Source: Patescibacteria group bacterium
GTDB taxonomy: Bacteria; Patescibacteriota; Gracilibacteria; JAHISY01
NCBI GenBank assembly: GCA_043797545.1
Contig: JAZDPN010000073.1
Coordinates: 1-57,523, forward strand
Reading direction: 5' to 3'
DNA: 57,523 nt
Made by a program: the position numbers and the translations under genes. The notes under the pieces were generated by a model. The model saw nothing but the letters and a program-made list of their open reading frames with translations, did no database searches and was not told where the DNA came from. Below are positions 1 to 55,914 of the stretch, piece by piece (positions within the stretch are counted from its first letter, which is position 1; every line of letters starts with the position of its first letter).

Positions 1-2
1 CA

Positions 3-263
3 AAATCGGGATTCCAATTTTTCGCGACGACGCTCTCGATCTCGCCGCACAAAAACGCCAACTGGTTGAACGAGATTGGTCGCGAATTGTCAAGCAGGCA
101 CGGTGTGAAATTTTTGGAAGCCGATTGGAAAAAATGCGATGGTTTCAAAAAATCACTCGGGCTCTCGAAAGATGCCAAGCTCGTCCGCCAAAATTACTGC
201 GGCTGTGTCTACTCACAACGTGCCAGTAGACAACTAGTAGACACGAGTAGACAAAATGACTAG
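3..263 (+). CDS. queH: epoxyqueuosine reductase QueH (DUF208), 3' fragment entering from the left edge
   Basis: Frame 3 is open from the window edge. The translation ...TTLSISPHKNANWLNEIG...LVRQNYCGCVYSQ ends in the QueH-type YCGC motif. The last 14 codons (RASRQLVDTSRQND) are encoded by the GTAGACA repeat module. Confidence 0.6.
   Translation, partial: KSGFQFFATTLSISPHKNANWLNEIGRELSSRHGVKFLEADWKKCDGFKKSLGLSKDAKLVRQNYCGCVYSQRASRQLVDTSRQND
225..254. repeat. GTAGACA heptamer-array module, copy A (AGTAGACAACTAGTAGACACGAGTAGACAA)
   Basis: Three GTAGACA heptamers spaced 10-11 nt apart. Near-identical to 1436-1465. Forms the C-terminal extension of queH. Confidence 0.9.
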
Positions 264-981
264 ACAACTCCCCCATCGCGCTTCGGAAAAAATGTCCACT
301 CGACAGCCGTTTTTTTGGGGCAAGACGAGTAGACAGGTTGTCGACATTCTCGGTTCCCCGCTCGACAACTTTGAGCAGCTGAATGAGCGCGCTTTGACGC
401 GCAATCGACAGACTCAGACAACTTCGCGCGATCTGCCTTTTAAATTTTGGCCGAAAGACAAAAATTGGAGCCTCGTTCAGCTCGCCGATCAGACTTTTGG
501 CTGGCTGCCGAATCGATATATAGTGAAACAAAAAAGCGCTAATTATTGGGAAAAAATTAAATTAGCGCCGAAAAACAAGCTGACTCCCCTGCTTTGCCCG
601 ACTCCAGCTAAATTTGAGAAATTTTTGAATCAGTTTAAAGGCGTTCCCTATCTCTGGGGCGGCACAACGAAGTCTGGGATAGACTGCTCGTCTTTCGCGC
701 AGAAACTGTTTTTCGAGCTTGGCGGAATTCTCTTACCGCGCAATTCGCGTGAGCAAAAAAAATGCGGGCTATCTGTCCAGTCGACAAAGCTGTGTCCACT
801 CGATTTACTTTTCTTTGTCCACTCGACAACTGGTCGTCACCATGTCGGTGTCTACTGGAATGATGAAGTTGTCCACTTCTGTCTAGACAAGCGTGGTTTG
901 TCTACTGAGTCGCTCGATTCGATGCAGAAACGCTATAATCACATCGCTACTCGGCGCATTTTCAAACTTCGAAATGCTTAA
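256..981 (+). CDS. NlpC/P60 family cell-wall peptidase with an SH3-like N-terminal part
   Basis: Contains VPYLWGGTTKSGIDCSSFAQKLF (catalytic Cys) and GRHHVGVYW (His). The start codon is uncertain because the N-terminus runs through repeat-derived sequence (TRQ/STRQ/TSRQ). Confidence 0.7.
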   Translation: MTRQLPHRASEKMSTRQPFFWGKTSRQVVDILGSPLDNFEQLNERALTRNRQTQTTSRDLPFKFWPKDKNWSLVQLADQTFGWLPNRYIVKQKSANYWEKIKLAPKNKLTPLLCPTPAKFEKFLNQFKGVPYLWGGTTKSGIDCSSFAQKLFFELGGILLPRNSREQKKCGLSVQSTKLCPLDLLFFVHSTTGRHHVGVYWNDEVVHFCLDKRGLSTESLDSMQKRYNHIATRRIFKLRNA

Positions 982-2554
982 GCAAATCAAGGCTGCGAAA
1001 AATATTCACGTCGTCGGAGTGAGCGGCACCGAGGGTGCGGCTGTGGCCCTTTTTTTGACAAAACTCGGACTCAAATATACGGCTCATGACTTCAGTGAAG
1101 AAGCTAAATTTCAGAAAAATTTTCTAGCGAGTCATCTCGGTTATTCGCCTGCAGAAAGAGAAAAAACACTTAAAGTGATTTTCAAAAATAGCTCTCTTAA
1201 CTTCAAGGAGAATTATCTCAAAGAGATTGAAAGTGCCGATCTGGTTTTCGTCTCCCAAAACTGGGAAGCCTACTCACCTAATCAAAAGTTGCGGAAAATT
1301 TTTGCCAAAAACCCGAGGAAATTCATGACGATCACTCAGCTTTATTTTGGAATTTTCCCGGGAAAGATTTTGGCTGTGACCGGAACGAACGGTAAATCGA
1401 CAACCACTAAGCTGATCGCTGAAATTATGTTCGCCAGTAGACAACCAGTAGACACGAGTAGACAATTAGCAGCGAAGTCCGCCGAAGCCTTGGTGAAGGC
1501 GGAACAACGGGTAGACAGTCGTGTTTATTTTACCGGCAATGACCGTCGTAATATCCAAATTCTCGACCAATTCGACAAATGGAAAAAGTCGGATTGGCTC
1601 GTGATCGAGGTATCCAACCGCCAGCTAAAATTTCCGCTTGGTCGCGCACCAGAAATCGGAGTGATTACGAATGTCACCCCGAATCATGTTGATGAATATA
1701 TAGATGGTTTTTCGGCTTACAAAAAGGGAAAATTTGCCTTGGTCGCTGGCCAAAAAAATAATGATATATGTGTGTTGAATTATGACAATATAATCACGCA
1801 CAGCTTTGCGAAAAAGGTAAAATCAAGAGTCGTTTTCTTCTCTGCTAAGAAGAAGTTGTCTACTGGCCTGTCCGCCGTAGCCTCCGCGAAGGCGGGTGTC
1901 TACATCGATGCTGGTTGGATAGTAGACAAAAACCAATCTGTCGACTCGCCAGCTAAAGTTTGCCTGCGCGCCGAAGCCAAAGTGGCAAAGGTGTGTCTAC
2001 TCGACAAGGTAAAATTGATCGGGGAACACAACTTTGAGAATGTTTTGGCGGCAGTCGCCGCGACTCGTGCGGCCGGAGTGAGCGCAAAGATAATTTGCCA
2101 AACGATCGAGCAATTTCGCGGCATCCCACAAAGACTGGAAGTTGTTTTCGAGAAAAACGGTGTGAAATTTATCAATGACTCAGCTTCGACAACGCCCGAA
2201 TCAACCATCGCGGCGTTGCAAAGTTTTCCAAAAAAATCGGTCAATTTGATCGCAGGCGGGGAGTCCAAAGGCATGGATTTTGCCAAGTTGGCACGTGAAA
2301 TTCGGACTCAAAAAACGCGAGTTATTCTACTCGAAAGTCCGCTCGCAAAAAGTTTGGCAAACGAATTGCGAAAATTAAAAGTTGGTTTTGAAATTGTGAA
2401 AGATTTGCGCACGGCTGTCGAGCTTTCCGCTCGCAATGCGCAAAAAGGCGACATCGTGCTCTTATCTCCGGCGGGTGCGTGGTTTTGCTATTTCTCAGGA
2501 AAAATCCCGCTCGGCGGCAGGGGATTCGAGCAATTTGCCAAAGCCCTGGCTTAA
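974..2554 (+). CDS. murD: UDP-N-acetylmuramoylalanine--D-glutamate ligase (Mur ligase family, MurD-like)
   Basis: N-terminal Rossmann motif VVGVSGTEGAAVALFL, P-loop GTNGKSTTT, and the C-terminal motifs NDSASTTPESTIAAL and GGESKGMDF. The ATG at 974 overlaps the stop of the previous gene. Three in-frame repeat insertions are present. Confidence 0.8.
   Translation: MLKQIKAAKNIHVVGVSGTEGAAVALFLTKLGLKYTAHDFSEEAKFQKNFLASHLGYSPAEREKTLKVIFKNSSLNFKENYLKEIESADLVFVSQNWEAYSPNQKLRKIFAKNPRKFMTITQLYFGIFPGKILAVTGTNGKSTTTKLIAEIMFASRQPVDTSRQLAAKSAEALVKAEQRVDSRVYFTGNDRRNIQILDQFDKWKKSDWLVIEVSNRQLKFPLGRAPEIGVITNVTPNHVDEYIDGFSAYKKGKFALVAGQKNNDICVLNYDNIITHSFAKKVKSRVVFFSAKKKLSTGLSAVASAKAGVYIDAGWIVDKNQSVDSPAKVCLRAEAKVAKVCLLDKVKLIGEHNFENVLAAVAATRAAGVSAKIICQTIEQFRGIPQRLEVVFEKNGVKFINDSASTTPESTIAALQSFPKKSVNLIAGGESKGMDFAKLAREIRTQKTRVILLESPLAKSLANELRKLKVGFEIVKDLRTAVELSARNAQKGDIVLLSPAGAWFCYFSGKIPLGGRGFEQFAKALA
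1436..1518. repeat. Composite repeat copy B: heptamer array + hairpin TCCGCCGAAGCCTTGGTGAAGGCGGA + terminal GTAGACA
   Basis: Positions 1436-1465 match copy A in 29 of 30 nt. The hairpin at 1478-1503 is almost identical to 3498-3523. Translated in frame as SRQPVDTSRQLAAKSAEALVKAEQRVDS. Confidence 0.9.
1857..1903. repeat. Short hairpin element flanked by direct TGTCTAC heptamers (opposite orientation)
   Basis: Layout is TGTCTAC(1857-1863) - CCGCCGTAGCCTCCGCGAAGGCGG - TGTCTAC(1897-1903). Translated inside murD as STGLSAVASAKAGVY. Confidence 0.75.
1921..2001. repeat. 81-bp element with 8-bp terminal inverted repeats AGTAGACA / TGTCTACT and a central hairpin TTTGCC...GGCAAA
   Basis: The inverted termini are at 1921-1928 and 1994-2001. 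The central stem is 1959-1964 / 1984-1989 and contains a GCCGAAGCC core as in the other copies. In frame inside murD. Confidence 0.7.
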
Positions 2555-2707
2555 TTATTTTTCCTCGTCGACCGGCTCATATTTGAGCGGTTTGAGCGAA
2601 GTAATCAGGATCTCGCAACCGCAATTTTCGCATTCGACAACTTCGCCAGCCTCGCTCGGCTCGTGCTCAATTTTGGTCTTACAATCTGGGCAAATAATCG
2701 TTATCAT
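2555..2707 (-). CDS. LysW-like zinc-ribbon amino-group-carrier-type protein (50 aa)
   Basis: The sequence MITIICPDCKTKIEHEPSEAGEVVECENCGCEILITSLKPLKYEPVDEEK has the CPxC...CxxCG ribbon, the GE-V-EC spacing and the acidic tail of LysW/ArgW. The C-terminus is DEEK rather than the canonical EDWGE. Confidence 0.6.
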   Translation of the reverse strand: MITIICPDCKTKIEHEPSEAGEVVECENCGCEILITSLKPLKYEPVDEEK

Positions 2708-2720
2708 TTGCGAGGATTTT

Positions 2721-3761
2721 ATGAATTTAATTTTGAATGTCAACCAAAATTTTGCGAATTTTTTGGACGAGTCGCGGCGCGACATTTGGCGCTACGCGAA
2801 AATTTTGAGCGATTCGAAAATTGTGAATTTTGTCGACCCGCTGCAAAAAGATTTCACGAAAATCGAGCGAATAGGGGATTTTTGGGTGAAACGGGAAGAC
2901 GAGAGCGCAGTCGGCTCACACAAATTTCGTGCACTCGCGTTCCAAATTTCCCAACTTCTAGAAGCGAAAATCGACCGTGCTGTCCTCTCAAGCTCTGGTA
3001 ATGCTGCAATCGCGGCCTCGCAAATCTTGCCAGAAAATACGAATTTGAAGCTCTTTGTGTTTTTGTCGAAGAAGACACCACCCGCCAAGTTGGCCGGGCT
3101 GAAATTTTCGAAAAACCTTGTTCCGATCCTCTCCGAGCGCCCATTGCGGATGGCGAAATATGCCGCGAAACACTTTGATTTAAGAGATTTACGTCCGTCA
3201 GTCGATCCTAACGCTGCTGTTGGTTTTTGCTCGCTCGGCTTCGAGATTTTCGAGCAAAAACCAGCTATTGAGAATATTTTCAGCTTCGCGACGAGCTTCG
3301 CGAGCGTCCGCGGCATCGCCGAGGCGTTTAAGTTTTTAGTCAAAATCGGTGCTCGGCAAAAAATGCCGAAGATTTTCGCGGTCACCTCGAGTGGAAGGCT
3401 GGCTGGCGAGTTGAGCAGGCAACGAGTAGACACGAGTAGACAAGCAAAAGTTGTCCAGTGGACAGAAGTAGACACAAGTGGACAACGAGTAGCGAAGTCC
3501 GCCGAAGCCTCGGCGAAGGCGGAACAGCTGGTAAATATCTCTGATGCAGAAATTTTGGCGACTCGTCAGAAACTGCCCGAGCTGAAAACTTCGAATGAAG
3601 GTTTGGCGAGTCTCGCCGCCGCCACGAAAATCAAACCGCAAGGGGAGACTTTGGTGATTTTGACGGGACGAGCTTGGCCGGACAAAAATGTTGATCTGGA
3701 TAAATTTGAAGAAGCTGACAATTTTGCAGAAGCTGATAAAATGGTCGCTCGTCATGGCTAA
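2721..3761 (+). CDS. PLP-dependent enzyme, fold type II (TrpB/ThrC/cysteine-synthase-like)
   Basis: Contains the lysine motif ESAVGSHKFRA, the SSSGNAAIAAS segment, and a glycine-poor TSSG loop. Carries repeat copy C in frame. The ATG at 2721 lies 13 bp from the divergent lysW-like start. Confidence 0.6.
   Translation: MNLILNVNQNFANFLDESRRDIWRYAKILSDSKIVNFVDPLQKDFTKIERIGDFWVKREDESAVGSHKFRALAFQISQLLEAKIDRAVLSSSGNAAIAASQILPENTNLKLFVFLSKKTPPAKLAGLKFSKNLVPILSERPLRMAKYAAKHFDLRDLRPSVDPNAAVGFCSLGFEIFEQKPAIENIFSFATSFASVRGIAEAFKFLVKIGARQKMPKIFAVTSSGRLAGELSRQRVDTSRQAKVVQWTEVDTSGQRVAKSAEASAKAEQLVNISDAEILATRQKLPELKTSNEGLASLAAATKIKPQGETLVILTGRAWPDKNVDLDKFEEADNFAEADKMVARHG
3425..3527. repeat. Composite repeat copy C (heptamer array, TGTCCAGTGGACA palindrome, hairpin TCCGCCGAAGCCTCGGCGAAGGCGGA)
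   Basis: GTAGACA occurs at 3426, 3436 and 3468, and GTGGACA variants are also present. The hairpin at 3498-3523 differs from 1478-1503 at 2 nt. Translated as SRQRVDTSRQAKVVQWTEVDTSGQRVAKSAEASAKAEQ. Confidence 0.9.
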
Positions 3762-4791
3762 TCTCCCCCGCAAAACGATTCATCTAGTCTCGCCTGACCC
3801 GCGCAAAATCGAGGGGTTGGAGCTGGCGTGGCCGCATTTCAAAATCTTCGTCTCGAAAATGAGTCCAGCGCTGCGCAAGGCCGAAAGAGCTGGCGCTGAA
3901 ATCGTGAATTTGAAGCTGCCAAAAATCAAGACTACGAGCGATTTATTGGTCGAATTAATCGGCCGGAAATTGGTGCGCAAGGGGAACCGGGTTTTGGTTT
4001 TCAAAAACCTGCCGAAAATCGAGCGGCTCGCCGCGAAACACAAATTCGAAATCCTAATGCCCGGATCGAGCTTTTTGAATTTGCTCGAAGACAAAATCAA
4101 CTTCGTGGATTTTTGTCACGAATTCGCGCTGCCGATTTTGCCGACGACGATTCGCGAGCTAAATCTCGTGCGCTTTCTCGAACCGGTCGTGATTCAGACG
4201 CGACGCGGACACGCCGGTGAGTCGACTTTTTTTATCCGCTCGCCCAAAGAGCTGGACAATTTGAAACGCAAAATAGGGGACTGGCCGGTCAAAATCACGC
4301 CGCTCAAAAAACTGCCTACTTTCACGCTCGATTTTTGTGTCACTGCGAACGGGATTTACGCGACGCAGCCGTTTTTCCAAATCACGGGCGATCCGAAATT
4401 GAATCCGCTGCCAGGCGGGACGGGCGGAATTGATTTCGACATCGCGGCGAAATTGTCGGACGCGACGAAAGGACGCATCGGCGCGCTCGTCGAGCTCGTC
4501 GGCGCAGCTTTGGAAAAAATCGGCTACCGCGGAATCGCGGGAATCGATTTCCTCGTCGATGACGCCAGCTCGAAAATTTGGCTGCTCGAGCTCAATCCGC
4601 GGCTGCTGAGCAATCTCGGTTTCGTGACACGGAAACAAGTCGAGGCGGGGGAGATTCCCCTTTTACAAATCCATCTTTTGGAATTTTTGGGTGAGGATTT
4701 ACGGAAATTCGATGCGCCAAAATTGAGCCGCGTGAATTCGGGAAGATTTGAAAATCCGCACCCGGACGCGCGGATGTTGATCGAAATTTAG
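3754..4791 (+). CDS. ATP-grasp family ligase
   Basis: The C-terminal GYRGIAGIDFLVDDASSKIWLLELNPRL is a typical ATP-grasp Mg/ATP motif. The ATG at 3754 overlaps the stop of the PLP gene (ATGGCTAA). Confidence 0.65.
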   Translation: MANLPRKTIHLVSPDPRKIEGLELAWPHFKIFVSKMSPALRKAERAGAEIVNLKLPKIKTTSDLLVELIGRKLVRKGNRVLVFKNLPKIERLAAKHKFEILMPGSSFLNLLEDKINFVDFCHEFALPILPTTIRELNLVRFLEPVVIQTRRGHAGESTFFIRSPKELDNLKRKIGDWPVKITPLKKLPTFTLDFCVTANGIYATQPFFQITGDPKLNPLPGGTGGIDFDIAAKLSDATKGRIGALVELVGAALEKIGYRGIAGIDFLVDDASSKIWLLELNPRLLSNLGFVTRKQVEAGEIPLLQIHLLEFLGEDLRKFDAPKLSRVNSGRFENPHPDARMLIEI

Positions 4792-4799
4792 TTTTTGGA

Positions 4800-5336
4800 A
4801 TGAATGAACTCGACAAAAATCGCAAAATTTTGCACGAGACTTTCGAGTTGGGGATTTTGGTAAAAGGGATCGATGGTATTTTGGAAGTCATCGGCGGGGC
4901 GCTTTTGCTTTTGCTCCAGCCGGCGCAAATCAATTCGCTAATTGTCTGGCTGACGCAACACGAACTCGCGCAAGACTCGCACGATTTGCTCGCAAATTAC
5001 CTCGTGAAATTGGGGAGTAATCTTTCGCTCGACGCGCAAGTTTTTGGCGCGATTTATCTGCTGATTCACGGAGTGATCAAAGTCGCGCTGATTTTGGGTT
5101 TGTGGAAAAAGAAATTAATCGCGTATCCGCTCGCGATTATTTTTCTCGCGCTTTTTATCGTTTATCAAATCTACAGATATGTTCAACAGCCCGCGCTGTG
5201 GCTAGTTATTTTAAGCGTTTTCGACGCCGCGATGATCTTCCTGACTTGGGCTGAGTATCGACAAGTCAAAAAGAAATTGGTGTTTCTAGAACTTGAAGAT
5301 CGACAACAGAATACTGGCTTTTCAACCAGGGTTTGA
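4800..5336 (+). CDS. DUF2127-like integral membrane protein
   Basis: Four predicted TM helices. The overall pattern (LGILVKGIDGILEVIGGALLL ... WKKKLIAYPLAII ... IYRYV) resembles DUF2127. Confidence 0.5.
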   Translation: MNELDKNRKILHETFELGILVKGIDGILEVIGGALLLLLQPAQINSLIVWLTQHELAQDSHDLLANYLVKLGSNLSLDAQVFGAIYLLIHGVIKVALILGLWKKKLIAYPLAIIFLALFIVYQIYRYVQQPALWLVILSVFDAAMIFLTWAEYRQVKKKLVFLELEDRQQNTGFSTRV

Positions 5337-5571
5337 TATGGTAAATTCCGCCCCTTTAATTTTTAAGAGGTGGAAACATCCGGAAAAAAATCATCCTTGC
5401 TCGAAAGGATGCTGCCCAAAAAATTACTTTGGTTGGCGCAAGTAGTGCGAGAAGAAGTCGTGTACGCAATCATTAATTTTCGCGCAAAAAAGTCCAAGCC
5501 TCTTAAGCCTGGATTGCCCGGAGCTTTACATTTGACAGGAATTTCTTCGGTAAAGCCAAAGAAAAAAATAA

Positions 5572-6570
5572 TTACTTCTCGTTAATCGTCTCTTTCACTT
5601 TCACGCCGAAATGTCGGCCAGCGTCCTCGACGAACGCGAGAACCTCGTCGCCTTTTTTCAGTTTCGTGATCGAGATCGGTTTACCGTTCGGCTGAGTCAG
5701 GCGAATTGTTTCGGCATTTTGCATCACGAGCGAAATCGGCTTCGTGCCAACTTTGCCACGGACATGGAGCATCGGCCGTTTTTCGATTTTCGCGCGACCA
5801 ACCGCGAGTGGAAAAGTGTTGCCCTTTTCATCGCAAATCAAAATCTGTTTGCCCGCGCCAACTTCGTTGAGATAGCCGGTTTTGTTGTCTGGGAGACGCA
5901 CATACGCGTGCACCGCGCCGACATTCACGCGAAACGGACGCGGATCGCAATACGGACTTTCGACATTTTCGTTGAAAACGAGAAACATCGCCGAGCTGGA
6001 ATCTCCCGCGAGAATTCCCTGTCCGGGAGTGAGAATCGCGGTCGTGTCGACACACACGCGGTCGGCGACACCGACCGGCTCGGTCGACTCAATCTTCGCG
6101 CGAACGAGCTGCAATTTTTCGTTGTTCGCCTCACGGACGACTTTTCCCGTTGCGACGATCTCGGCGGGTTTCGCGGTTTCGAGGAGGATTCCATCCGCGC
6201 CGACTTCCATCGTCGTGAGCGCGAGTTTCGCTTTTTGCGCGTTCGGGACGGATTGAATGATTTTGGTGGTTTTGGAGATCAAATTCTCGAGCGGAATGAT
6301 CGACCAGTCCTTGTTGCGAATAATCTTCCAAACGCGCTCTCCGGCCGCGACAACGTCATTCTCGACCTCTTTCGCGGTGATCGTGAACTCGCGGACATCT
6401 TTGCCAATTTTCAAATCCCCGTCTTCGGCGACGATCTGGATCAGCCCCAATTCTTTCGCTTTCTTCGCAAAACCTTTCGGCAAAACAAGCGCGTCGGCTC
6501 CGGACTCGATCGCGGTCGTGACCAAATTTTTGTTCCATTTCGGGATGGAAACCCAAAAAAGTTTTTTCAT
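5572..6570 (-). CDS. 3-dehydroquinate synthase II (archaeal-type DHQS, AroB-prime)-like
   Basis: N-terminus KKLFWVSIPKWNKNLVTTAIESGADALVL, later VHAYV and ETIRL segments, and a length of about 330 aa fit my recollection of the PF01959 family. Assigned from memory only. Confidence 0.5.
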   Translation of the reverse strand: MKKLFWVSIPKWNKNLVTTAIESGADALVLPKGFAKKAKELGLIQIVAEDGDLKIGKDVREFTITAKEVENDVVAAGERVWKIIRNKDWSIIPLENLISKTTKIIQSVPNAQKAKLALTTMEVGADGILLETAKPAEIVATGKVVREANNEKLQLVRAKIESTEPVGVADRVCVDTTAILTPGQGILAGDSSSAMFLVFNENVESPYCDPRPFRVNVGAVHAYVRLPDNKTGYLNEVGAGKQILICDEKGNTFPLAVGRAKIEKRPMLHVRGKVGTKPISLVMQNAETIRLTQPNGKPISITKLKKGDEVLAFVEDAGRHFGVKVKETINEK

Positions 6571-7556: not shown

Positions 7557-9032
7557 TTAAAAATTCAATTCGCGAATCGCCTGCCAGCGCCCAACCGACC
7601 AAATCGGACCTCGAGTAATTGTTTGAATTTGGGTAAAAAGTTTTTGCAACTGCGAATCAGTCAGTAAATTTTTATTTTGTGAAAGCGAATCGAGATAGTC
7701 GGTCGGCAGCTCGCGCGCGAAATGCCCGATACGCCAATTCGGCGTGGCGGGAAGGCGCGCGAGAAATGCATCAGTGAGCGCATATTCATCGATGATCACG
7801 CAATCACGTGGCGCAAGAAATCCGTAAATGCCGACATTTGCGAACGATCGAATGCCGTGACATTCGCCCTGGTTTTTCGGCGCCCAAGAGTGATTTTCGA
7901 TACCGCCGAGACGAATCATCGCGAACAAAGAATTTTCTGATTCGAAAAATTCGCGCTCATCCGCGATGCCGAAATCGTTGATTGTTTTTGCCGCGATCGG
8001 ACTGCCCGAAAAATTAATTCCCCAGCCGACAACCGCGAACAGCAAAATAATTTTGGCGAATTTTTTGAGCTGAACAAGGTCGGGGATTTGTCCGAGCAAA
8101 ATTACCGAGCCGAAAAAAAGTGGGGCGAGGAAACGACCGGACATGAAGTCGCCGCCGATTTTGAGAATATAAATTAGATACAAACACAGTCCCGCCGCGA
8201 GGCCGAGCAGTTTTTTCGAGCGAGAAACGAGCGACCAAACGAACGCAGCGAAAATCGTCGCGAGCGTGAGCGGATCGCGAATGAAAGAGTCGATTAAATA
8301 TTTGCCGCCCTGCGCGAGCAAAGCGAGCGGCGCGATTCCGGTCGCGAGTTTCGCGTAAAAAGTATTTGGGAAAGGAAAACCGAAATAAATCAGCGCGAAA
8401 AATTCCCACAGAATGAGTGGCGTGTAGCCGAGCAAAATTTGACCGAACGCTTTTGCTTTGTGCGGCGCGGCGAAAAATTCCCAGAGCAAGACCGGAACGA
8501 AAAGCAAAATCGTGTCGAGGCGATTGACCGTGGCGAGTGCGGCGACGAAGGAAAGCGCAAGCAGTTTTCGCGGCGAATCTTTTTGGAAAAAAATGAAAAC
8601 GAAAAGCGCGAACAAAAGATTGGTCAGCGGATTTTCGAGGCCGGAAGTCGCGAAATCGAGAAAAGCGTGCGAAAAAAACAGAAGCGCGAGTACGAAAATT
8701 TTGGCGAAGTCGCGCGAGATTAATTTGCGCAATACGAGCGCGAGCGCGGCGCAGCTCGTCAAAAACGAGACGCTCAAAGTCGTGAAGTACGCTTCGCGGG
8801 TGAGGAAATAAAACGGCGTGAGCAGAAATAACCAAAGCGGGTGAGTGAAAACTTGGACACGCTCGACGACATTCCAGCGCAAGCCGAAACCGTGCACGAA
8901 GTTGTCGATCACGCGCAAGGTAATAAATGCGTCGTCGGAGATCCACGCTCGCGCGACGAGACGGACAAGTAAAAACCCGAGCAAAATTCCGATCCCGATT
9001 CGCAGCCAAGTTCGTTTTTTGAGTGCGTTCAT
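7557..9032 (-). CDS. GT-C fold membrane glycosyltransferase (ArnT/PMT/arabinofuranosyltransferase-like)
   Basis: About 12 TM helices and an N-terminal loop motif WISDDAFITLR typical of GT-C enzymes. Confidence 0.55.
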   Translation of the reverse strand: MNALKKRTWLRIGIGILLGFLLVRLVARAWISDDAFITLRVIDNFVHGFGLRWNVVERVQVFTHPLWLFLLTPFYFLTREAYFTTLSVSFLTSCAALALVLRKLISRDFAKIFVLALLFFSHAFLDFATSGLENPLTNLLFALFVFIFFQKDSPRKLLALSFVAALATVNRLDTILLFVPVLLWEFFAAPHKAKAFGQILLGYTPLILWEFFALIYFGFPFPNTFYAKLATGIAPLALLAQGGKYLIDSFIRDPLTLATIFAAFVWSLVSRSKKLLGLAAGLCLYLIYILKIGGDFMSGRFLAPLFFGSVILLGQIPDLVQLKKFAKIILLFAVVGWGINFSGSPIAAKTINDFGIADEREFFESENSLFAMIRLGGIENHSWAPKNQGECHGIRSFANVGIYGFLAPRDCVIIDEYALTDAFLARLPATPNWRIGHFARELPTDYLDSLSQNKNLLTDSQLQKLFTQIQTITRGPIWSVGRWQAIRELNF

Positions 9033-22019: not shown

Positions 22020-22577
22020 ATGTCCGCCCAAAAAGATTTTTATTCGATTACCCGCGAGGAAGCCGCTGAAAAATTGGGTATTTCGACACGCACGCTCGAC
22101 CGCTATTTGAAGCGCGGAAAATTGAAATTCAAACTCTCGCCGAGTCGGCAAGTTTTGATTCACGCCCAGGATTTGGAAAGGGTCGCGAAAATTTTGGCGA
22201 AAATTCCTGCGCCAAAAAAGGTCAGCCCGAAAGAAAAAACTTTTGCGGCCTCGGCCGAGGCCGAAGCTTTTGAGATCCCAACCGAGGCCGTCGAGGAAAA
22301 AATTTTTCGCGAGCTGTACGAGGAGGCGAATAAGGATTTAAAAGCGAAACAGGAAAAACTTGAAGCAGCGAGCTTCCGCGTCGGTCAGCTCGAGGCGCAG
22401 CTCAAAAGCTCAGTTCCTTTGCTTGAACACAAACAAAAAGAACAGGAGATGCATAGTGAAAATTCACGCCTTAAGGAAAAACTCGTCGGGGCCATCCTGA
22501 AGAGTTGGGTTTTCCTCGGCATAGCCATATTCGCGACGATCGTCGCAGTCGTTTTGGGTTTCTTGAATTATCTGTAA
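22020..22577 (+). CDS. HTH (excisionase/MerR-like) - coiled coil - C-terminal TM anchor protein
   Basis: ITREEAAEKLGISTRTLDRYLKRGKL is an HTH_17-type motif. It is followed by a long coiled coil and a terminal hydrophobic helix. Confidence 0.55.
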   Translation: MSAQKDFYSITREEAAEKLGISTRTLDRYLKRGKLKFKLSPSRQVLIHAQDLERVAKILAKIPAPKKVSPKEKTFAASAEAEAFEIPTEAVEEKIFRELYEEANKDLKAKQEKLEAASFRVGQLEAQLKSSVPLLEHKQKEQEMHSENSRLKEKLVGAILKSWVFLGIAIFATIVAVVLGFLNYL

Positions 22578-27559: not shown

Positions 27560-28660
27560 CTAAATCTTTAACGGCATGATTAAGTGCAAATAGTCTTTAA
27601 TCTTGGCTGGGCGAATCACCGCGGGCACCATTTTTTCACCAAGCTCAAGCTCGAGATCACTTGTCCCAAGTGCGGAAAGCGCTTCTAGCAAGTAGTTGGC
27701 ATTGAGCGCGACTATGTTGGGCGCGCCCGCAATCGTCGCGGCAACCTCGGCCTCTTCTTCACCGATCTGGGTCGCATCCGAGAGAATGCGTAATTTCTTG
27801 TCCGCTGAGACTTCAATCTTGACTGAGTGCGAATCACGGGTGAAGAGGTTGACTCTTTTTACTGCGGTCGCAATTTCTTCTGTCTTGACTGAGATCGTGG
27901 TCGTATGTTTTTTCGGAACAATCTGCTCGTAATCAGGATAGCTACCTTCAATCAACCTCGAAGCCAGCTCGACATTTTTGTAAAGGAATAAAACCTGGTT
28001 CGCGGAGATATCGAGCGAGATTGTTTCTTTGCCTTTTTCGAGAATACGCGCCAGCTCCTGAACGGTCCGGGTCGGAATGATAATCGAAACATCTTTCTCT
28101 GGCGGAGTCAGTGGTTTAAGAATTTTTTCCGAAAGACGGTAGGAATCAGTCGCGGCCAGTCGAACCTCTTTTTTGGTCGCGCGGAGATGAACTCCGGCCA
28201 GAACCGGCCGAACCATGTCGCGCGCGGCAGCAAAGGCGACTTGATTAATCGCGTCGAGCAAATCGCCTGCAGCCAAGGTCAGGGAAACTTCTTTTTTGAC
28301 CTGAGGAATCAAGGGGAATTCGTCCGCGGAAATACCTTTGATCCTAGTCTTAGACTTGGCCGATGAAATCTGCAGGTCGAGACCTTCTGAGTTTTTTAGC
28401 TCAACCTTGCCTGAGCTGAGCAGACCGACGTAATTCGTAAAAAGTCGGGCCGGGATCGTGAGTGCGCCTTCGTTTTTGATTTCAGATTTAATCGAAGTCG
28501 TGATCGCGATTTCCAGATTCGTCGCTGCGAAAGTCAGCTTCTTGTTCTCGGCTTTGAGGAGAATGTTGTTGAGAACCGGCAGGGTCGAATTCAAATTAAC
28601 CGCCTTGGAAACGGTCGTGAGCGCGGCGAGAAGATCTTTCTGTTCACAGGAGAGCAGCAT
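27560..28660 (-). CDS. dnaN: DNA polymerase III beta sliding clamp
   Basis: 366 aa. The N-terminal L..AL..V.KAV......PVLNNILL pattern and the three-domain length fit the family. Confidence 0.85.
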   Translation of the reverse strand: MLLSCEQKDLLAALTTVSKAVNLNSTLPVLNNILLKAENKKLTFAATNLEIAITTSIKSEIKNEGALTIPARLFTNYVGLLSSGKVELKNSEGLDLQISSAKSKTRIKGISADEFPLIPQVKKEVSLTLAAGDLLDAINQVAFAAARDMVRPVLAGVHLRATKKEVRLAATDSYRLSEKILKPLTPPEKDVSIIIPTRTVQELARILEKGKETISLDISANQVLFLYKNVELASRLIEGSYPDYEQIVPKKHTTTISVKTEEIATAVKRVNLFTRDSHSVKIEVSADKKLRILSDATQIGEEEAEVAATIAGAPNIVALNANYLLEALSALGTSDLELELGEKMVPAVIRPAKIKDYLHLIMPLKI

Positions 28661-46924: not shown

Positions 46925-47122
46925 TTTTCCAAAAAATTATTTAAATAATTTTTTAAATTTTCTTTCTCTTAATTTCAATTCTTAAATTCTTTTAAAAAAC
47001 ACCACTTTCCAAAATCTTTTCCAAAATTTATCCACAAAATTTCTTACTTATTCTTAAAAACTAATTATTCAACCATTTTTCGCTTAAATGAATCAACTAG
47101 TTCTTACTTATTAATTAAAAGA
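46925..47122 (+). promoter_or_regulatory. 198-bp AT-rich leader upstream of cimA with a 12-nt direct repeat and one consensus DnaA box
   Basis: TTCTTACTTATT occurs at 47041-47052 and 47101-47112. TTATCCACA is at 47028-47036. TTTCCAAAA words recur. Confidence 0.4.
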
Positions 47123-55668: not shown

Positions 55669-55728
55669 ATCGCTGTTTTCTCGCTGTCGCGAGGACGCTG
55701 CTTTTTTGGCGGCAAAATTGCCGATCGT

Positions 55729-55757
55729 GTAGGGGCGGGTTTTAAACCCGCCCCTAC
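55729..55757. repeat. Perfect GC-rich palindrome GTAGGGGCGGGTTTTAAACCCGCCCCTAC (REP-like)
   Basis: Stem of 11-14 bp. Two further palindromes follow at 55821-55836 (CCTGTC GGCA GACAGG) and 55869-55885 (GCGCGGC TTTG CCGCGC). Confidence 0.85.
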
Positions 55758-55914
55758 ATTTCGCCCGTCGACCGCTGATGCAAAATTCTACGAATTTTTC
55801 CACGCAGACTCGCAAGCCTGCCTGTCGGCAGACAGGTCGCCGCCCCAATTTTTTCGAATGGCTGGAAAGCGCGGCTTTGCCGCGCCCTCTCCAAAAATTC
55901 TGTAAAATTCAGCA

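Follow-up and report, generated by a model that had tools for sequence, protein, structure and literature searches.

Arrays of short DNA boxes set at intervals of one helical turn are known from several bacterial systems, for example the 11-bp iterons of plasmid R1 parC (ParR), the heptads of omega proteins, the heptad-N3-heptad operators of CtsR and the boxes of MraZ. These iteron and operator arrays comprise 2-12 boxes and lie in non-coding DNA beside the gene of the binding protein. Regulatory sites within genes are also known, as in the case of lacO2 within lacZ and the multiple DeoR operators, which are intragenic auxiliary operators consisting of single sites that leave the protein unaltered. 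Rickettsia palindromic elements (RPEs), the closest described in-frame repeats, measure 100-150 bp and are scattered across the whole genome, in spacers as well as in unrelated genes (reviews such as PMC10969869). Here we describe a new variant of both repeat-derived in-frame inserts and binding-site arrays. It is found in a 57,523-nt stretch of DNA from a Patescibacteria group bacterium (contig JAZDPN010000073.1, assembly GCA_043797545.1), which as a whole is referred to below as the window. What we observed is an array of GTAGACA-like boxes that is written at the level of the DNA, conserved among relatives, bound to one locus and embedded in essential genes.

The array in one block of adjacent genes

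In the window, GTAGACA occurs as 18 exact copies on the two strands, where 1.23 are expected (0 of 100 shuffles reached 18), and all 18 lie within 206-3474. The variants GTGGACA and GTCGACA are also present, and in all ~25-30 boxes are found in one 3.5-kb block of four adjacent housekeeping genes: the 3′ end of queH, nlpC/P60, murD and the gene for a pyridoxal phosphate (PLP)-dependent enzyme. All box and hairpin copies fall within 206-3523, and none is found in the other 54 kb. The consensus from 155 aligned sites is C-[G/C]-A-G-T-[A 51%/G 36%/C 13%]-G-A-C-A-[A], with a core defined as AGT[A/G]GACA and a fuller form as C-S-A-G-T-R-G-A-C-A. Neighbouring boxes on the same strand are overwhelmingly 10, 11 or 21 bp apart, and numerous sites each make up one half of a 10- or 13-bp palindrome with the pattern TGTCNA(N)TNGACA. 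The boxes are grouped in five zones, A to E (Table 1).

The original prediction for this DNA had described a repeat family, read in-frame and resembling RPEs, in unrelated housekeeping genes. The three box modules and two hairpins that it listed (copies 1 and 3 in Table 1) have the sequence it gave, and Pfam agrees with its naming of queH, murD and the PLP enzyme. Its inventory was correct in the copies listed but omitted the second hairpin copy and the decayed one, the reverse-strand heptamers and the NlpC/P60 cluster of zone B. The genes are not scattered, however; they are four immediate neighbours in the 3.5-kb block.

Relatives, annotated to the Candidate Phyla Radiation (CPR), were obtained through a 19-mer search (L001, L002 and L006) and through MurD proteins (L007, L008/L009, L251, L250 and L252). 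Exact look-ups of the window NlpC/P60 and MurD products and of P0002 gave no entry. MurD from the related array genomes is 57-67% identical to that of the window, as compared to 53% for L251 and 46% for L250. Gene order is kept in the relatives, running SLH protein, TGT, QueH, NlpC/P60, MurD, LysW-like protein, PALP, ATP-grasp and DHQS. The same box pattern is found in independent assemblies from JGI, NCBI and Logan; it is therefore not an assembly artefact. A literature search found no account of such an array in CPR genomes.

Confinement to the locus is pronounced. Six array-bearing genomes hold 131 GTRGACA boxes in 20.5 kb of locus sequence versus 5 in 100 kb of flanks, a ~128-fold enrichment, and helically spaced box pairs number 62 inside the locus and 0 outside. 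In a seventh genome 28 of 29 boxes are inside, giving pooled counts of 159 inside and 6 outside. The non-locus sequence of these seven genomes amounts to ~117 kb, and no phased box pair, box array or hairpin copy was found in it; neither the other 54 kb of the window nor ~63 kb of flanks from five relatives held a box array or hairpin copy. An unbiased comparison of k-mers inside and outside the locus recovers the core of the box in the form of AGTAGACA (69 vs 0) and AGTGGACA (43 vs 0). The 19-mer common to the three modules was also searched in one genome per species (185,579 species). It matches L001, L002 and L006, in each case within the orthologous PLP gene; apart from these, two Peribacteria match through a run of conserved codons in recG, and one match is due to chance.

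The five zones recur in every array-bearing relative. A counterpart of zone A lies in or beside the queH-nlpC spacer of L251 (5697-5843), L008 (7870-7980) and L252 (7950-8140), and the position of zone E carries arrays in L001, L002, L006, L007 and L252. Even L251, which has no large inserts, contains 18 boxes versus 2.3 expected, of which 14 are in the same zones, and shows a 14-fold local enrichment.

Table 1. Positions in the window of zones, boxes, palindromes, hairpin copies and adjoining genes.
Feature	Positions	Strand	Remarks
Zone A, queH 3′ end and nlpC/P60 5′ region	206-346	both	
Zone A box	206-212	-	
Zone A, 30-nt three-heptamer module AGTAGACAACTAGTAGACACGAGTAGACAA	225-254	+	boxes 226-232, 237-243, 247-253
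Zone A CTAGACA variant	260-266		adjoins ATG at 256
Zone A 13-mer TGTCCACTCGACA	293-305		overlaps alternative ATG at 292
Zone A box	329-335	+	
Zone A palindrome TGTCGACA	339-346		
Zone B, NlpC/P60 3′ half	774-905		70-200 nt upstream of murD start
Zone B palindrome TGTCCAGTCGACA	774-786		
Zone B TGTCCAC	793-799, 870-876		
Zone B palindrome TGTCCACTCGACA	816-828		
Zone B TGTCTAC	849-855		codes G-V-Y
Zone B TGTCTAC	899-905		
Zone B palindrome TGTCTAGACA	880-889		codes F-C-L-D-K
Zone C, MurD insert 1, after P-loop helix	1436-1517	+	peptide SRQPVDTSRQLAAKSAEALVKAEQRVD
Zone C, 30-nt three-heptamer module AGTAGACAACCAGTAGACACGAGTAGACAA	1436-1465	+	one C/T difference from copy at 225-254
Zone C hairpin copy 1	1478-1503		
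Zone C box	1511-1517		
Zone D, MurD insert 2	1857-2006	both	
Zone D TGTCTAC	1857-1863, 1897-1903		
Zone D hairpin copy 2	1871-1896		
Zone D GTAGACA	1922-1928		
Zone D TGTCGAC	1939-1945		
Zone D decayed hairpin copy	~1965-1996		
Zone D TGTCTACTCGACA	1994-2006		
Zone E, insert in PLP-dependent enzyme	3425-3523	+	
Zone E two-heptamer version of module	3425-3443	+	
Zone E boxes	3426-3432, 3436-3442, 3468-3474, 3478-3484		
Zone E palindrome TGTCCAGTGGACA	3452-3464		
Zone E hairpin copy 3	3498-3523		
LysW-like zinc-ribbon protein	2558-2785	-	Pfam
Divergent PLP enzyme	2721-3758	+	distantly threonine dehydratase-like, E 6e-6
ATP-grasp protein	3754-4788	+	Pfam

These distributions bear on the RPE-like reading. 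As in RPEs, short in-frame repeats lie in housekeeping ORFs (open reading frames), add peptide at tolerated surface positions and have a palindromic component. Here, however, the repeats occupy one 3.5-kb syntenic block, the unit measures 10-11 bp and is often tandem, and boxes also occur in conserved residues without insertion. A whole RPE is a long stable imperfect palindrome, whereas only the 26-nt hairpin module folds here. The original prediction had itself named a wider scan as the test of its repeat family, and that scan, covering the non-locus sequence described above, found no further copies. Thus the in-frame, loop-tolerated inserts stand, while a dispersed mobile family does not, as far as the ~117 kb shows. 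We regard an RPE-like family, or one akin to MITEs (transposable elements of the miniature inverted-repeat class), inserting in-frame into unrelated genes as very unlikely. Insertions in the loops of housekeeping enzymes, the palindromic GC-rich module, and the presence in these genomes of other palindromic repeats and of an IS200-like Y1 transposase gene would fit such a family, but the absence of boxes and hairpins elsewhere, the restriction of the 19-mer to one orthologous gene beyond chance and recG matches, the positional (not random) conservation of the zones and the quite different palindromes that border the transposase gene do not. Additional scans were made for wider occurrence. Among the matches listed from a triple TGTCYAC-N3-4 scan of metagenome and viral contigs only unrelated tandem repeats and iterons were found, and plasmid and phage BLAST with the module gave chance matches only. 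None of the ~240 loci listed from triple-heptamer scans encodes a homologue of a locus protein, a result that is uninformative on dispersal.

A system of repetitive extragenic palindromic (REP) sequences or REPINs with a REP-associated tyrosine transposase (RAYT) was also considered. GTAG is found beside GC-rich hairpins, and two relatives carry an IS200-like Y1 transposase gene 7-8 kb upstream. In contrast to REP sequences, the boxes are genic and at one locus, and 49% are without GTAG. The candidate was rejected, as doublets of GACCCTCAGGGTC and CAACCCCTCGGGTTG, rather than boxes, border the Y1_Tnp genes of L007 and L250. These transposase genes (RAYT-like, E ~1e-9; L007 699-1334, minus strand; L250 2254-2859, minus strand) lie beside a giant SLH gene. 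Two further palindrome doublets are located inside the called TGT ORF of L250 (8684-8718 and 9278-9310) and may represent a genuine in-frame palindrome insertion. REP-like perfect palindromes of the form GTAG...CTAC are found at 55728-55758 of the window and at 7665-7692 and 7809-7836 of L008 (TGTAGGGGCGGGTTT/AAACCCGCCCCTACA; GTAGGGAAT...ATTCCCTAC), and make up a repeat family distinct from the boxes.

A signal in the DNA, not in the peptide

Boxes lie on both strands and in every open frame. Depending on strand and frame, one and the same box is read as SRQ/SGQ, VD, WT, LST, VY/VH or CLL/CPL, and it occurs in five frame/strand combinations that encode unrelated peptides. The original prediction held that every copy is read in the same frame. 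This is the case for the three forward modules, which all read SRQ/VD(T), and the reason it gave is correct, since two of the three forward frames contain TAG. The reverse-strand heptamers of the window are nevertheless read in other frames, as LST, VY and CLL.

Box codons are seldom used by the remaining genes of the window, where AGT accounts for 10% of Ser, AGA for 7% of Arg, GTA for 7% of Val and CTA for 6% of Leu, and oligomers that contain TAG are otherwise avoided. Where aligned residues are the same amino acid, the codon is the same too in 78-85% of box codons versus 40-48% elsewhere (p < 1e-9 whichever genome defines the boxes), a figure that is inflated because aligned repeat copies need not be orthologous.

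Boxes are also found within conserved, ungapped residues, so the array does not consist of insertions only. The sequence TGTCTAGACA, coding F-C-L-D-K of NlpC/P60, is kept in each of the six genomes in which this gene is covered (the window, L006, L007, L008, L251 and L252) and invariably uses the rare CTA codon there; TTTGTCCAC (F-V-H) is likewise positionally conserved in the last five. At the 'WIV[D/H/Y]' position of MurD the sequence is GTAGAC, GTCCAC or GTCTAC depending on the genome; the amino acid varies, but a box is retained in one or the other orientation. Ingroup MurD proteins read 'KLSTG' (TTGTCTACTGG) where the outgroup has 'KLQKG'. Finally, the non-coding spacers of L008, L251 and L252 hold boxes as well. 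The signal is in the DNA, not in the peptide.

A function of the encoded SRQ/VD/AKSAEA peptides, for instance as linkers or interaction motifs under selection, is consequently the least probable of the explanations considered, and we hold it to be extremely improbable. The hairpin module does always occur in one frame, as (K)SAEA..AKAE, which is what such selection would predict. It would not predict unrelated peptides from the same box, uniform use of rare codons, predicted disordered inserts of anywhere from 0 to 190 residues, or boxes in non-coding spacers. A word-indexed search with the array peptides for other host proteins returned no match. With the PLP insert as query, an exhaustive search by HMMER gave just one immunoglobulin-repeat protein and unrelated VDISGQR-repeat proteins; as it also missed the known relatives, it is too insensitive to bear on the question. 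The VDISGQR proteins (P0121-P0124), the only strong matches, contain dozens of copies of this heptapeptide, some of them matching a Pfam beta-roll / ice-binding repeat family, and resemble the inserts by peptide composition only. For annotators, the hypervariable SRQ/VD-rich segments in the proteins of this locus, with insert-derived peptides such as SRQPVDTSRQ and AKSAEALVKAEQ, derive from a DNA motif and not from protein domains.

Three further ideas were set aside. Translational bypass is at odds with ORFs that run through the inserts unbroken, a restriction-site or methylation motif with confinement to one locus, and a link to queuosine-decoded NAC codons with the several frames in which boxes are read.

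Inserts in MurD and exchange between zones

In an alignment of 32 MurD sequences, the two MurD zones hold anything between no insert at all and dozens of residues in which SRQ, VD and LST are frequent. Among relatives, insert length at the two loops runs from 0 to ~190 residues. Outgroups carry at zone C, the first of the two, a single TCTAGACA(A/T) coding S-R-Q/H. The alignment to solved MurD structure 3LK7 breaks exactly at both zones, with 48 versus 21 and 43 versus 15 residues (window versus 3LK7). The segments therefore sit where orthologues are shorter, in agreement with the tolerated in-frame insertions of the original prediction. An AlphaFold2 model of MurD (predicted TM-score, pTM, 0.88) places them in loops with a predicted local distance difference test score (pLDDT) <50 at residues 164-179, 297-304 and 323-333, against >=84 over most of the rest, and the inserts are thus predicted to be disordered, tolerated loops. 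The MurD of one relative, P0023 (778 aa), has ~330 extra residues, ~190 and ~140 at the two zones, and its two inserts share a duplicated segment of ~70 residues.

Zones of one genome also resemble each other. In the window, the MurD stretch 1447-1513 and the PLP-enzyme stretch 3467-3533 share 87% identity. Copies of the hairpin module CGAAGTCCGCCGWAGCCT..GGYGAAGGCGGAAC number 3-4 in the window, 3 in L006 and 1 in L251 (at the queH stop), all inside the locus, and in other lineages these zones hold GC palindromes of another kind, for example CCTGCCGGTAGGCAGG. Hairpin copy 3 is predicted to fold as RNA at -21.9 kcal/mol (z = -3.4), but it is the 1 of 4 window copies more stable than shuffles, and no fold is predicted for the 30-nt box module (-0.9 kcal/mol, z = +0.6). 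No covariation was found in the hairpin, whose copies are too similar or, if decayed, simply lose pairs, so that the structure is not provable. Rfam gave no relevant match in window positions 1-6000 at E up to 1. The pattern suggests that the array was remodelled by tandem duplication and intra-locus conversion.

Such dynamics could also operate without any protein that reads the boxes. A neutral, self-propagating local repeat could have started from an ancestral seed (e.g. S-R-Q coded TCTAGACAA) and spread by slipped-strand duplication and ectopic or biased gene conversion, and the small effective population size of CPR bacteria would let loop insertions persist. This is the main rival explanation, possible but in our judgement clearly short of an even chance. 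It explains the dynamics well: the single outgroup motif lies exactly where the ingroup arrays sit, box copy number differs greatly among relatives, long near-identical stretches are common to the zones of one genome, each lineage-specific hairpin type is copied among its zones, and the inserts lie in predicted disordered loops. It explains other features poorly. Boxes gained by substitution in conserved, ungapped protein segments are unaccounted for, as are the retention of rare-codon boxes across genomes with otherwise near-saturated synonymous sites, the 14-fold enrichment in the proto-array of L251, which has no tandem expansions, the recurrence of the same five zones and the concentration of palindromic forms at the nlpC 5′ region. 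Coding minisatellites and tandem repeats are comparable in that copy number varies among relatives and a 21-nt double unit keeps the frame. A single minisatellite, however, would not turn up on either strand, in three frames and at five zones of four genes while keeping its positions between genomes. If the boxes are unread, the locus would illustrate cleanly, in a natural setting, how a repeat evolves in concert within one locus, and would still show the extent of insertion that MurD tolerates at two loops. In either case, the RPE-like reading is corrected.

A candidate protein-binding array

The restriction to one syntenic locus, the conserved zones, the helical phasing, the palindromes, the rare-codon boxes in conserved residues and the enrichment without insertions point to a cis-acting DNA element. 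From this pattern we infer a putative binding protein and a possible purpose for it. We give roughly even odds to a lineage-conserved, locus-confined array of recognition boxes serving as binding sites for a putative sequence-specific oligomerising protein. The more specific proposal is that a protein-binding array acts in cis on the chromosome, as an operator with looping sites or as a centromere-like nucleoprotein site, under selection strong enough to overwrite codons and amino acids and to lengthen essential enzymes; coding sequence would then be the scaffold of a DNA-level element in gene-dense CPR genomes. We hold this to be plausible but somewhat less than an even bet.

The array may have nucleated in the 5′ region of nlpC, in which the putative start codons at 256 and 292 overlap with boxes. 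This cluster, the densest and most palindromic, could be the main operator, with the other clusters, located 0.4-1.5 kb apart inside genes, acting as intragenic auxiliary sites for looping or roadblock control of the cell-wall gene block, or as part of a centromere-like nucleoprotein site. Box clusters at insertion-tolerant protein positions would then grow and shrink as the 10/11-nt unit is duplicated, with 10+11 = 21 nt preserving the frame. Ectopic gene conversion would swap material between zones, carrying the GC-rich hairpin module along, and the outcome would be translated as disordered loop insertions.

Precedents exist for parts of this proposal. The iteron, parC and heptad-operator arrays likewise consist of short tandem boxes at one helical turn (10-11 bp), sometimes inverted, at one locus, but here 25-30 boxes extend over 3.5 kb of mostly coding DNA, and no mraZ, parR or similar gene was seen nearby. 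As with lacO2 and the DeoR operators, a regulatory site would be placed in coding sequence a few hundred bp from a promoter operator; in contrast to them, the site clusters lengthen proteins by tens to hundreds of residues. MraZ boxes come in groups of three or four, each GTG(G/T) with 6 nt between neighbours, and are found upstream of mraZ and of cell-wall and division genes (PMC12957436). GTGGACA-N3-GTGGACA has the same spacing, and its sequence fits the GTGGACA third of the boxes. However, 51% of the boxes here have GTAG and 13% GTCG, and the 25-30 boxes are mostly intragenic. Scanned against Pfam, the locus ORFs and 41 ORFs of 150 aa or more gave no mraZ. An MraZ operator was rejected on box number, intragenic location and the majority GTAG form.

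A chromosomal replication origin with a cluster of DnaA boxes, or a canonical ParB-parS centromere, was examined and is very unlikely. Clustered, helically phased repeats are typical of origins, TTGTCCACT matches the DnaA box TTATCCACA at 7 of 9 positions, and the Peribacter genome paper speaks of short repeats, not further specified, close to an origin for which gene content gave no obvious clue (PMC4736985). The commonest box, TTGTCTACT, nevertheless has 3 mismatches to the DnaA box, and boxes overall differ at 2-3 of 9 positions. There is no intergenic AT-rich unwinding element, no DnaA-box cluster and no parS within 3 mismatches of the canonical form, four relatives have no minus-to-plus GC-skew switch at the locus, and dnaN is 25 kb away. 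Both oriC and parS were rejected on GC skew, box sequence and the lack of parS. The window dnaN (27563-28660, minus strand) has no adjacent dnaA; the spacer upstream of it holds a small lipoprotein-like ORF, not an origin. A very AT-rich spacer with a perfect DnaA box (47028) is found at 46925-47122, near the cumulative GC-skew peak, before a leuA-like gene and not dnaA.

Several points weigh against protein binding. No candidate binding protein was seen in the window or in the conserved neighbourhood, and the latter has no DNA-binding gene that we could find; the single helix-turn-helix (HTH) protein of the window (22020-22574) has no evident link to the array. We know of no operator or centromere that bears the box. 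Sites numbering 25-30 over 3.5 kb of coding DNA far exceed the needs of known operators. The high codon identity of the boxes could stem from concerted evolution (gene conversion) instead of selection. L250, which is without the nlpC and PLP/ATP-grasp genes at the site, has essentially no array, and the array is therefore not essential to the gene block. The confinement itself rests on ~117 kb of non-locus sequence from genomes of roughly 1 Mb.

Should the boxes be read by a protein, the locus would be an unusually clear case of two codes competing in one DNA, in which a regulatory or structural array of sites has altered how long essential enzymes are and what sequence they have, in a lineage that has hardly any intergenic space to spare. 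The box would also be a defined motif with which to seek a new regulator of cell-wall genes in uncultivated CPR bacteria.

Pfam identifies the genes at the window locus as QueH (3′ end), NlpC/P60, MurD-type Mur ligase, LysW-like zinc ribbon (opposite strand), PALP-family PLP-dependent enzyme and ATP-grasp. The nlpC and murD ORFs overlap (nlpC end 981, murD start 974), and in relatives P0013, P0019, P0022, P0032 and P0036 NlpC/P60 and MurD are fused as one protein of 690-810 residues. The LysW-like, PLP and ATP-grasp genes form a conserved trio adjoining murD that hints at an amino-group-carrier-protein pathway.

Apart from position 2, which is A, G or C instead of T, the box hexamer T[A/G/C]GACA equals TTGACA, the sigma-70 -35 consensus (e.g. 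window 1438-1466). GTTGACA has zero occurrences in the locus, and a promoter scanner flags TAGACA-N17-GACAAT within the arrays. Elsewhere in the k-mer spectrum of the window (49% GC), A/T-run oligomers dominate, and the palindrome AAAATTTT occurs 37 times, versus ~1 expected from base composition and 35 under a Markov model.

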